A stretch of DNA of 64,000 nucleotides from a virus (Duplodnaviria; Caudoviricetes). Below the pieces are notes generated by a model. It saw only the letters and a program-made list of their open reading frames with translations, searched no databases and had not been told where the DNA came from. Below are positions 20,495 through 45,860 of this stretch, piece after piece. How positions within the stretch are numbered: position 1 is the first letter of the stretch; each line of letters opens with the position of its first letter. The translations under genes and the position numbers were made by a program. The stretch covers positions 1 to 64,000 of IMG/VR virus record IMGVR_UViG_2706795974_000001, one strand, 5' to 3'.

Positions 20495-20566
20495 TGGTCC
20501 GTAGCTCAATGGCAGAGCGCCCGACTGTTAATCGGGTGGTTGAAGGTTCGAGTCCTTCCGGTCCAG
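20495..20566 (+). tRNA. tRNA-Asn(GTT)
   Basis: Full cloverleaf: D arm GCTC/GAGC, anticodon arm CCCGA-CTGTTAA-TCGGG, T arm GAAGG-TTCGAGT-CCTTC and G73. One T:T mismatch in the acceptor stem; CCA is not encoded. Confidence 0.92.
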
Positions 20567-20615
20567 CTATACAACTGAATAAAGAAGTCAACTAAGACCA
20601 GTGAAAGGGTCACCA

Positions 20616-21209
20616 ATGACACACGCAGGAATCCCCACCCGCGAGCAGGACACCTCGGACTTCGAAGGTCGGCCCGAAGCGGAGCGCGCCAATGCCGCCG
20701 CACTGGCTGCGGGCGAGGTTGTCGAGGAGAAGCAGTTCGTTGACTACTTCGCGGCCCCGCTCCCGCAGCGCTGGTACCTGCCGGACGGCGTTCAGTACTT
20801 CGAGTACCAGGAACTCCGCGAGGGCGGCAAGGCTGCCTACGAGAAGCTGACCAACAAGGACATCCGCGTTCAGCGCTCGACCGGAGACGCTCGCCTGTCG
20901 GTGGACCCCGCGATCCAGCGACAGTCTCTGATCCGCCTGTCGGTCACCGACGTGCACCTGATCCAGAAGGACTCGGGCGGTCGCCCGCAGGTGGTGCCCT
21001 TTAACAAGGAGCGCCCGGGCAAGTTCTGGGATAACCTGTTCACCTTCTTTCCGGCCGTGCTCATCGACAAGCTCCACCAGGAGATCGTGAAGGCCAACTC
21101 CTGGCTGGCAGCCGACGACGACGTCGAGGCGCTGAAGGAAGAGCGCGAGCGCCTTGACGAGCGCATCCAGCGCGCCGAGGAGGAGCAGGCAAAAAAGCTC
21201 TCCTCGTAG
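20616..21209 (+). CDS. Tail assembly chaperone (G)
   Basis: Lies between tail tube and tape measure; ends just after a slippery heptamer. Confidence 0.8.
   Translation: MTHAGIPTREQDTSDFEGRPEAERANAAALAAGEVVEEKQFVDYFAAPLPQRWYLPDGVQYFEYQELREGGKAAYEKLTNKDIRVQRSTGDARLSVDPAIQRQSLIRLSVTDVHLIQKDSGGRPQVVPFNKERPGKFWDNLFTFFPAVLIDKLHQEIVKANSWLAADDDVEALKEERERLDERIQRAEEEQAKKLSS
21191..21197 (+). other. -1 programmed frameshift site A AAA AAG
   Basis: In-frame GCA AAA AAG; the -1 frame stays open to TGA at 21484. Confidence 0.85.
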
Positions 21210-44059: not shown

Positions 44060-45262
44060 CTACTCCTTGATAAGCCTCGGCACCACCTTGGGCCGGGGTT
44101 CGCCGATACTCTCTCGGACTGACGAGCGCAACCTTGACTTCTGGATGGGAGTCAAGGCGTTGCCCTTCAGCAGCTTATCGACTTCGCTGTTGTTAATCTT
44201 TCCCATCGAAGAGAACAGATTATCACCAATGATCTCGCGCACCGTTGCCGGATCATAAGACTTGCGCCGGGACGACTTGAACGCAACGTGGAAGTTCTCC
44301 GTGTCGAACTCGATCTCGTCAGACTCAATGGCGGACTTGAGGAGTTCTTCCTGGACTTCCTCGATGGCTTGCCTGATTGCCTTCTGCGCACCTTCGAGTT
44401 CTGCATACCGGCGAGCCATTGCGTCGCGGTCGCCAGCCAGCATCATAATTCCGCCCGCCTCAATGTTCTTTGTGAGCTCAGGACAGGTTGCTTTGACCGG
44501 GCAGAACTGGCACTCCGAGTTGAGCGTGCGCTTGCCAGGCTCTGGCTCAGCGATAATACGCTCAGCAACCTTGCGGATGTACTTCCAAGTTGCAACGTTG
44601 TCGTCGCGTGTGAACTTCACTTCGACTGGGTCGTAGCGGAGCTGATCGAAGCAGACCCAAATCTCATCGGGGTTGAGCTCGAAACCCAGCTCCTTCTCGA
44701 TCTCCTTCTTGGCTAGCATGATTGCCATACCATAGAGTCTGCCCTGCGGCTTCTGTCGAAGTGCTTCGGGGGTGAGGTGCTGTCGCCAGGTCTTGTAGTC
44801 CACAATGCGAACGATGGACTTTCCATCTTCCTCGAACCGATCGAGCCGGTCGAAGATGAAGGTGTAGGGCTTAGGTCCTGCCGACGTCTTGATCTCCACT
44901 TTAATCTTGCGCTCGACCATGAGCACCTCGACGTTTTCGAGTTGGGTGCGCTGGAACCAACGCTCCAGCATCTCAATTCCGTCTGCGTACCAAGGGTCTT
45001 TGGGGTCGGGCACCCGGTTGAACTGCTTCATGAAGTTCTGCTTAAAGAACGCCACGATGTCCGGCCAGTCCATGTCGTGAGTCTTGTCGATGTGCGCGCG
45101 CTGAACGATGATCTCCAGCGTGTCGTGAACCGCGGTGCCCAGACGCGCTGGCTCTGAACTACCTCCTGGGGTGGGCACGCGGTCAACCATCTCGACCTGG
45201 TACCGATAGGTGCAGCCCTCGAACACCTGGATGGACGATGCCGAGATGGATCGAAGTTCCAC
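44060..45262 (-). CDS. Cas4/RecB-like PD-(D/E)XK exonuclease
   Basis: SISASSI..C, LGTAVHDTLE, FDRLD, IVDYKT, QGRLY and C-terminal CQFCPVKATC. Confidence 0.85.
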   Translation of the reverse strand: MELRSISASSIQVFEGCTYRYQVEMVDRVPTPGGSSEPARLGTAVHDTLEIIVQRAHIDKTHDMDWPDIVAFFKQNFMKQFNRVPDPKDPWYADGIEMLERWFQRTQLENVEVLMVERKIKVEIKTSAGPKPYTFIFDRLDRFEEDGKSIVRIVDYKTWRQHLTPEALRQKPQGRLYGMAIMLAKKEIEKELGFELNPDEIWVCFDQLRYDPVEVKFTRDDNVATWKYIRKVAERIIAEPEPGKRTLNSECQFCPVKATCPELTKNIEAGGIMMLAGDRDAMARRYAELEGAQKAIRQAIEEVQEELLKSAIESDEIEFDTENFHVAFKSSRRKSYDPATVREIIGDNLFSSMGKINNSEVDKLLKGNALTPIQKSRLRSSVRESIGEPRPKVVPRLIKE

Positions 45263-45606
45263 TACTTGGCTCCTCTCTTAGTGGTTACGCCGCCCCAGAT
45301 TCCGTCGGTCGAACCAGTGCGCTCGCGGTAGTCGAGGCACTCCTGTCTTACTGGGCAGCTCATGCAAATCTTCTTCGCGCGATTGGCGCGGGCCGCTTGT
45401 CCCCGGCCAGGGAAGAATGCGTCTGGATCGTGGTACCCTACACAGAGGGCGCGCTCGGTCCATTCTTCGGGGATGAGACTGAAGGAGGCTTGGGGCCCGG
45501 TGTCGCCGGGGCTTCCGAACTCTTCCCCTTCTCCGCAGTCGCAGGCTTCTCCGGTCCTGTCGGGTCGAAGAGAGAGGGCTGCGCAGATTCCGTTGCATCT
45601 AAAGGG
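45262..45606 (-). CDS. whiB: WhiB-family Fe-S transcription factor domain in a frame lacking a start codon (reached by a -1 shift from ORF 45438..45860)
   Basis: Translated by hand: WTERALCVGYHDPDAFFP..AKKICMSCPVRQECLDY..GIWGG, with four Cys and GIWGG. Its TAG overlaps the nuclease GTG (TAGTG). Confidence 0.9.
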   Translation of the reverse strand, partial: PFRCNGICAALSLRPDRTGEACDCGEGEEFGSPGDTGPQASFSLIPEEWTERALCVGYHDPDAFFPGRGQAARANRAKKICMSCPVRQECLDYRERTGSTDGIWGGVTTKRGAK

Positions 45607-45860
45607 CGGCGCCCCCCGCGCATTTCGAGCTCGAATGCTGTGGTTGGTTCGCCCTCTCCGAACAGCTCGCTGGCGTCACGCTCGGCGTCGGTCTTGGCGT
45701 TGCTCTCGTTGGAGAAGGCCGTCTCCTGAAGGTGCGACTCGAAGGCCGTTTGGGTCGGTGCCTTCGCTCGAAAATCCTGGAACCCCTCCTGATCCATACC
45801 TCCGCGGATCGGGTGCATCTCGTCGGGCCCAGCCGGGCGCTTGAATTGCTGTTCAGTCAC
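45438..45860 (-). CDS. Hypothetical acidic protein; N-terminal partner of WhiB (unshifted product)
   Basis: AAGGAG RBS before the GTG; strong codon bias over about the first 85 codons. Confidence 0.75.
   Translation of the reverse strand: MTEQQFKRPAGPDEMHPIRGGMDQEGFQDFRAKAPTQTAFESHLQETAFSNESNAKTDAERDASELFGEGEPTTAFELEMRGGRRPLDATESAQPSLFDPTGPEKPATAEKGKSSEAPATPGPKPPSVSSPKNGPSAPSV
45600..45606 (-). other. Candidate -1 slippery heptamer C CCT TTA
   Basis: 0-frame CGC CCT TTA; -1 frame CCC TTT AGA leads into WhiB. A G6 run lies 5 nt upstream. Confidence 0.6.

Follow-up and report, generated by a model that had tools for sequence, protein, structure and literature searches.

The 64,000-nucleotide (nt) stretch of DNA analysed here (positions 1 to 64,000 of IMG/VR record IMGVR_UViG_2706795974_000001, and hereafter the window) derives from a Gordonia terrae phage of the genus Woesvirus and is 99.9% identical to phage Teal. 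On its minus strand, an open reading frame of 140 amino acids (aa), which we call ORF1, overlaps a -1 frame that encodes a complete WhiB-like (Wbl) domain and offers no ATG, GTG or TTG from which that domain could be translated. Comparison with related phages makes it very probable that a programmed -1 ribosomal frameshift at a slippery heptamer within ORF1, C CCT TTA, yields two proteins from this gene, the 140-aa protein and a 199-aa fusion. The mechanism itself is canonical; what is new is the class of gene, the architecture of the product, in which a four-cysteine (Cys4) module is joined to a WhiB domain, and the dependence of that product on recoding. Such a pair of products, with a trans-frame fusion of about 199 aa, had been proposed in an original prediction made from the window alone; the comparative evidence now backs that proposal strongly, and the presence of an in-phase heptamer in all of the 25 lineages surveyed exceeds what chance would give.

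The coordinates in the original prediction were confirmed without exception, including those of ORF1, the -1 frame, the heptamer, a run of six G (G6) upstream of it, the overlap between the WhiB TAG and the GTG of the downstream nuclease gene, and the length of the fusion. The heptamer is contained in CGC CCT TTA at 45608-45600, is in phase with ORF1 and has the X XXY YYZ form; slippage there would join the first 87 codons of ORF1 to 112 codons read in the -1 frame (87 + 112 = 199). The prediction that the -1 frame holds a complete WhiB domain lacking an upstream start was also borne out, the domain matching Pfam PF02467 over profile positions 1-60 of 65 (E 2.1e-17, 63.9 bits against a cutoff of 23.6). 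Not one ATG, GTG or TTG precedes the first WhiB cysteine in this frame; the earliest is the ATG at 45363, and a stub begun there retains two of the four cluster cysteines.

The strongest evidence comes from homologous loci. Our survey comprised 25 lineages from Gordonia, Tsukamurella and Rhodococcus phages and from metagenomic (IMG/VR) contigs. An in-phase X XXY YYZ heptamer occupies the homologous position in every one of the 25 and takes only two forms, both canonical. CCCTTTA is found in five lineages (Woesvirus, Montyvirus, the Tinduovirus represented by Tsukamurella phages TIN2-4, GTE7/GMA7 and Demosthenesvirus), and CCCAAAA in the other 20 (ReqiDocB7, Perlina, Gmala1/GordTnk2, GMA3, Orchid, Jumbo, Camerico, Mbo2, Reynauld and 11 IMG/VR contigs). 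An in-phase heptamer of this form is expected by chance about once per 256 codons, and judged against that rate its occurrence at the homologous site is in excess of chance. The original prediction had called for an alignment of homologues, and in the 25 loci the break between frames is kept together with the heptamer throughout. One further contig matching the CCCTTTA pattern (L123, 31% guanine plus cytosine (GC)) was dropped as a chance match.

Beyond the heptamer, the -1 frame presents its conserved elements in a constant order: P-[FK]-R, then C-x-G-[IVA]-C, then C-x-C-G-E-G (in most lineages), and finally the WhiB domain. In seven lineages (Gmala1, GMA3, Orchid, Jumbo and three uncultivated virus genomes (UViGs)) the preceding -1-frame stop codon is separated from the heptamer by 0-1 codons, and all but one of the lineages (24 of 25) lack an ATG, GTG or TTG between the -1-frame stop and the first cysteine pair. 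The heptamer, approached in the 0 frame, is therefore the only way into the conserved module. That two different canonical heptamers should occupy one site, with meaningful sequence in both frames, would be hard to explain except by selection for slippage.

Patterns of substitution point in the same direction. In an ungapped comparison of the window with four Montyvirus genomes, the columns that vary ahead of the heptamer number 53/17/15 at 0-frame positions 3/1/2, and those past the 0-frame stop number 2/3/25 at -1-frame positions 1/2/3. Immediately after the heptamer, cross-genus comparison gave variable -1 positions 1/2/3 of 8/4/12 out of 12 in the CCCAAAA group and of 7/5/11 out of 14 in the CCCTTTA group, and mean pairwise amino acid identity after the heptamer comes to 0.62-0.64 when the -1 frame is translated and to 0.46-0.51 when the 0 frame is. 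Taken on these alignments, the periodicity switches from the 0 to the -1 frame, and the -1 frame is under purifying selection from the heptamer onwards. The heptamer itself is invariant despite being composed of disfavoured synonymous codons, although third positions around it vary almost everywhere; in 33 long open reading frames of the window, TTA accounts for eight of 1551 leucine codons (0.5%), CCT for 14.7% of proline codons and AAA for 9.2% of lysine codons.

The C-terminal part of the predicted fusion is recognizable as a member of the Wbl family. Structures of WhiB, WhiB1, WhiB3, WhiB4 and WhiB7 in the PDB match the domain with E values from 6e-17 to 8e-6, and in an alignment of 12 lineages the cysteines C55, C81, C84 and C90 and the motif G-I-W-G-G are invariant or nearly so. 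AlphaFold2 was run twice on the 12-row alignment, with the window protein and then the Orchid protein placed first, and assigned the WhiB domain a predicted local distance difference test score (pLDDT) of 70-88 and the Cys module one below 50. Wbl proteins are iron-sulphur (Fe-S) regulators that bind region 4 of the principal sigma factor, SigA. By analogy, the long form would be expected to carry a [4Fe-4S] cluster and to bind the same region, and redirection of transcription during infection is a plausible role for it.

Between the heptamer and the WhiB domain, invariant columns P1, C4, G6, C8, C22, C24, G25, E26 and G27 (12 lineages at 39-88% identity) define a four-cysteine module that is probably a metal site. 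The original prediction had rightly noticed additional cysteines in this linker, although the pattern it gave for the first pair, C-xx-C, was wrong; the pairs are C-x3-C (CNGIC) and C-x-C (CDC). Residues 1-49, which contain the module, have no match in Pfam, the linker is covered by no PDB sequence match, and the module could be assigned neither to a zinc ribbon or other known Cys4 family nor to a confident fold. Variant modules occur behind CCCAAAA: one contig (L038, UViG_3300020034, from position 1426) has C-x2-C followed by C-x-C-P-G-N, and three others (L107, L115 and L119) have C-G-[QL]-G-[EQ]-W with extra cysteines. Of the two cysteine pairs, the first is therefore the more constant. A profile of the -1 product searched against 1.84 billion predicted proteins returned 39,865 WhiB relatives, and the first cysteine pair was covered by none of the best 150 of these; the top match was a gene call begun at an internal GTG in an Orchid-like phage. 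The absence of the module from ordinary open reading frames fits a module that lies out of the reach of gene callers.

In the N-terminal part common to both products, an alignment identifies a short motif, [NQH]P..F followed by an acidic stretch and DF[RST]P, that is kept across all lineages and looks like a linear binding peptide; in the group to which the window belongs, the N-terminal part has an extra insertion of about 50 aa with three TAF[EQ] repeats. The 0 frame remains open for 32-102 codons past the heptamer in every lineage (45599-45438 in the window) and encodes a tail rich in proline, serine, glutamate and threonine. In the lower-GC lineages (Orchid, Jumbo, GMA3 and Gmala1) this tail extends further than would be expected from synonymous shuffling of the -1 frame (fractions of 0.035-0.16), which is at most suggestive of selection to keep it open, in lineages that are not independent of one another. 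ORF1 is annotated as a 'hypothetical protein' (gp43 of Teal) and belongs to PHROG 6890; we saw neither a Pfam family nor a nuclease motif in it, and the Protein Atlas yielded no usable match. The 'endonuclease' label borne by its homologues in RefSeq and PHROG 6890 found no support, and looks like a propagated error.

An upstream stimulator of Shine-Dalgarno (SD) type is likely on the comparative pattern. As a rule the heptamer is preceded, at a distance of 5-6 nt, by a G-rich sequence resembling an SD; the window has GGGGGG, Demosthenes GGAGG, ReqiDocB7 GAGGTG and Orchid GGTGGAG, and in 11 of 17 lineages the predicted pairing energy of this element with the anti-SD sequence is within the best 7% of positions at the same locus. 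The tail-chaperone gene of the same genome has a slip site of comparable design, A AAA AAG at 21191-21197 on the plus strand, preceded by GAGGAGGAG and 5 nt, in reading frames that span 20616-21209 and extend to 21484; the spacing from SD-like element to heptamer is the same 5 nt at both sites, and in relatives the chaperone coding sequence (CDS) is annotated as joined. Codon rarity might contribute as well, for a slow A-site at UUA might allow the transfer RNA (tRNA) for proline in the P-site to slip from CCU to CCC.

From these observations we propose the following course of expression. Translation of ORF1 would be initiated at GTG 45860, behind a strong SD sequence, and most ribosomes would terminate at TAG 45438 to release the 140-aa protein. 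A fraction would move back by one base at C CCU UUA and read on in the -1 frame as far as TAG 45262, producing a protein composed of the common 87-aa N-terminal part, the Cys4 module and a complete WhiB Fe-S domain. The slip may involve simultaneous movement of tRNA-Pro and tRNA-Leu, or of tRNA-Pro alone in the P-site while UUA awaits its tRNA, and is presumably aided by the G-rich element 5-6 nt upstream. The long form would then bind the principal sigma factor as other Wbl proteins do, redirecting host or phage transcription, and the short form would share with it the same N-terminal peptide, which may serve in targeting. Recoding may in this way influence the dose of WhiB.

Several observations weigh against this reading. 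Eight of the 25 lineages were retrieved by a pattern of which the heptamer was itself a part, and so cannot reveal exceptions to its conservation. Within the 53-codon overlap of the two frames periodicity is flat (11/11/15) and codon usage favours neither frame; the original prediction had judged the codons just past the site to be more typical in the -1 frame, but the overlap scores are about equal (-4.06 and -4.10) and the -1 frame wins clearly only past the 0-frame stop. No conserved hairpin or pseudoknot was seen downstream in single-sequence folds of the 80 nt past the heptamer in 18 lineages, RNAalifold on the two heptamer groups gave consensus energies of -4.5 and -0.6 kcal/mol with essentially zero covariation, and Rfam returned no match at E <=1. 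The SD-like element is missing in Reynauld and a few others, and where present its spacing of 5-6 nt is nearer the heptamer than the roughly 10 nt of dnaX. Finally, in Demosthenesvirus and the majority of CCCAAAA lineages an ATG or GTG stands in frame 5-10 codons ahead of the first WhiB cysteine, and in such lineages ordinary initiation is a possible additional route to a short WhiB protein.

This last observation also speaks for the view that WhiB is translated independently everywhere, from an ATG or GTG before the domain where one exists and from a non-canonical start codon in the window, with the heptamer and the conservation of the -1 frame being incidental. Annotators do use the ATG or GTG that precedes the domain in lineages that have one, and Actinobacteria tolerate weak or absent SD sequences. 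Yet no canonical start precedes the domain in the window, Montyvirus, TIN2-4, GTE7/GMA7 or UViG_3300032074, and an independent start leaves unexplained both the invariant -1 Cys module right after the heptamer, with a stop codon 0-1 codons before it in seven lineages, and the retention of rare synonymous codons in the heptamer. A non-canonical start, which the original prediction had listed as an alternative, also cannot account for those seven lineages, in which the conserved residues of the -1 frame begin right after its stop. We regard independent initiation as a very unlikely explanation of the locus. Transcriptional slippage, whereby the polymerase adds one base in or close to the heptamer or G6 run of some messenger RNAs (mRNAs), would produce the same protein architecture from a one-base insertion, and the window does have its G6 run 5 nt upstream. 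However, the conserved runs are just C3 plus T3 or C3 plus A4, while the tracts known to cause slippage are much longer (some 7-9 A or T, or more); the G run varies between lineages, being G5, GGTGG, GGAGG or none; and the conserved X XXY YYZ phase matters to the re-pairing of tRNAs and not to a polymerase. Slippage by the polymerase is accordingly highly improbable.

Artefact or decay was a natural suspicion before checking, whether as an indel from sequencing or assembly, as a phase-variable indel or as a pseudogenized remnant of WhiB, given that errors typically arise where a homopolymer adjoins a frame break, and two of these had been offered as alternatives in the original prediction. The same two-frame structure is, however, found identically in the 22 deposited genomes that match the window at at least 99% identity and in Montyvirus relatives at about 76% nucleotide identity. 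Contigs from three DNA sequencing runs span 45600-45617 with no inserted or missing base, at depths of 159 (run X1), 434 (X2) and 3.35 (X5, a metagenome contig); together with the 22 genomes, they dispose of the sequencing indel. Slippage in the G6 run fares no better, as the run differs between lineages: Chelms has G5, TIN2 has GGTGG, and most of the CCCAAAA group have no such run. Decay is contradicted by the strongly purifying pattern over the WhiB part (2/3/25 at -1 positions 1/2/3) and by retention of the layout down to 39% protein identity. Artefact or decay can hence be set aside almost entirely. The X5 contig is 422 nt long, covers 45353-45774 with one difference from the window and originates from a food-fermentation metagenome, where a soil-isolated phage of Gordonia terrae would not be expected.

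The programmed ribosomal frameshift lends itself to a further, speculative extension, in which the heptamer acts as a translational sensor: slippage would rise when the matching host tRNA is scarce, so tying output of the regulator to the state of the host. The 0-frame codon in the A-site is either UUA, the rarest in the genome, or AAA, which is disfavoured, and the unshifted product, having the same N-terminal peptide, could compete with a regulator that has two metal centres, the Cys4 module and the WhiB Fe-S cluster. We consider the sensor unlikely as matters stand.

The features of the locus are collected in Table 1. Its surroundings are early or replication genes, and in all lineages its neighbours are a DNA methylase or RusA gene on one side and a Cas4-type exonuclease gene on the other. 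In the window the WhiB TAG and the GTG of the exonuclease have one base, a G, in common, and the original prediction had supposed that recoding sets translation of this coupled nuclease. A slip that gates the nuclease is not supported, because the nuclease is preceded by a GAGGAG of its own and the overlap of the two codons is not a conserved feature; TAGTG is broken in Orchid, Gmala1 and Mbo2, where small genes lie between WhiB and the nuclease. A scan for promoters and terminators gave no signal exceeding the level of shuffled sequence. The sole tRNA gene in the window is a tRNA-Asn(GTT) at 20495-20567 on the plus strand; the phage has no tRNA-Leu(UAA) or tRNA-Lys(UUU) that might relieve the rare A-site codon of the heptamer.

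Table 1. Features of the WhiB frameshift locus, in window coordinates.
Feature	Position	Strand	Remarks
SD sequence AAGGAG of ORF1	45871-45866	-	5 nt 5' of GTG 45860; read directly from the sequence
ORF1 (0 frame)	45860 (GTG) to TAG 45440-45438	-	140 aa
Part common to both products	45860-45600	-	First 87 codons of ORF1
G6 run, SD-like G-rich element	45617-45612	-	5 nt 5' of heptamer; putative stimulator
Slippery heptamer C CCT TTA	45606-45600	-	0-frame codons CCT TTA; -1-frame codons CCC TTT, next -1 codon AGA
-1 open stretch	45675 to TAG 45264-45262	-	Begins just after TGA 45678-45676; expected to be read only past the heptamer (112 codons)
Four-cysteine module, C-N-G-I-C ... C-D-C-G-E-G	45597-45526	-	-1 frame, between heptamer and WhiB domain
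WhiB (Wbl) domain	45462-45277	-	C-x25-C-x2-C-x5-C, then GIWGG
ATG-started stub	45363-45262	-	33 aa; GenBank 'WhiB family transcription factor', e.g. Teal gp42; PHROG 11832 (33-aa profile)
Cas4/PD-(D/E)XK exonuclease, downstream	45262-44060	-	GTG 45262-45260; own GAGGAG 7 nt before GTG

Among known systems, the gene may be set beside ordinary phage WhiB genes and beside three cases of frameshifting. Mycobacteriophage TM4 has an ordinary WhiB gene, and like those of clusters F and K and of other mycobacteriophages it shares with the present locus the four-cysteine Wbl domain and the G[IV]WGG turn; these genes are single open reading frames of about 65-130 aa with their own start, whereas here an extra Cys4 module and an N-terminal peptide would be reached only by recoding. 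In Escherichia coli dnaX, which encodes gamma and tau, the ribosome shifts at A AAA AAG with the aid of an upstream SD sequence (about 10 nt away) and a downstream hairpin, and meets an early stop that gives a shorter protein. The two have in common a heptamer, an upstream SD-like element as likely stimulator and a bacterial translation system, but the dnaX shift shortens its protein while the WhiB shift would open a 112-codon extension, and no conserved downstream hairpin was found at the WhiB site. In tailed phages, the conserved programmed frameshifts known so far are nearly all in genes of the virion, such as those for the tail chaperone, capsid and tail proteins. The tail assembly chaperone of tailed double-stranded DNA phages, with its G/GT-type -1 frameshift (Xu, Hendrix & Duda 2004, as cited in PMC4524720), resembles the WhiB site in its conserved -1 slip at an X XXY YYZ heptamer, in its short product and C-terminally extended fusion with a common N-terminus and, in this genome, in the G-rich SD-like element 5 nt upstream. 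It differs in being a gene for virion assembly, as opposed to a regulatory or early-region gene with the heptamer C CCU UUA or C CCA AAA, and in being annotated as a joined CDS, which the WhiB locus is in none of the 14 records inspected. The IS3-family orfA/orfB transposase of phage Sleepyhead is likewise frameshifted (PMC13313380); it also has its downstream domain in the -1 frame, a trans-frame fusion and a heptamer, X XXZ ZZN, in the overlap. Unlike it, the WhiB locus is not a mobile element, its partner is a Wbl Fe-S domain and its downstream frame is startless in the group of the window. That 2026 paper on Rhodococcus phages treats only the tail-chaperone and IS3 frameshifts (PMC13313380), and a literature search, with subscription-only journals not covered, found no description of a frameshifted WhiB or of a non-structural programmed frameshift in these phages.

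The consequences begin with annotation. GenBank calls the stub a 'WhiB family transcription factor' or a 'hypothetical protein', and 108 deposited records, RefSeq duplicates included, carry most of the -1 product; a correction would thus apply to about 100 deposited phage records, in which the gene at present appears as a 33-aa stub, as a WhiB with an internal start or not at all. The gene also defines a new subfamily of Wbl proteins, in which an N-terminal peptide, a Cys4 module and a WhiB domain are combined, and its two natural heptamers in many contexts offer a comparative system for -1 frameshifting in high-GC Actinobacteria. For the biology of the phages, which are considered for the control of Gordonia foaming, the long form is a probable host-takeover factor. 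Were the heptamer to act as a sensor of host tRNA as well, the locus would be a recoding-controlled switch for host takeover, kept across Corynebacteriales phages of about 70-83 kb.

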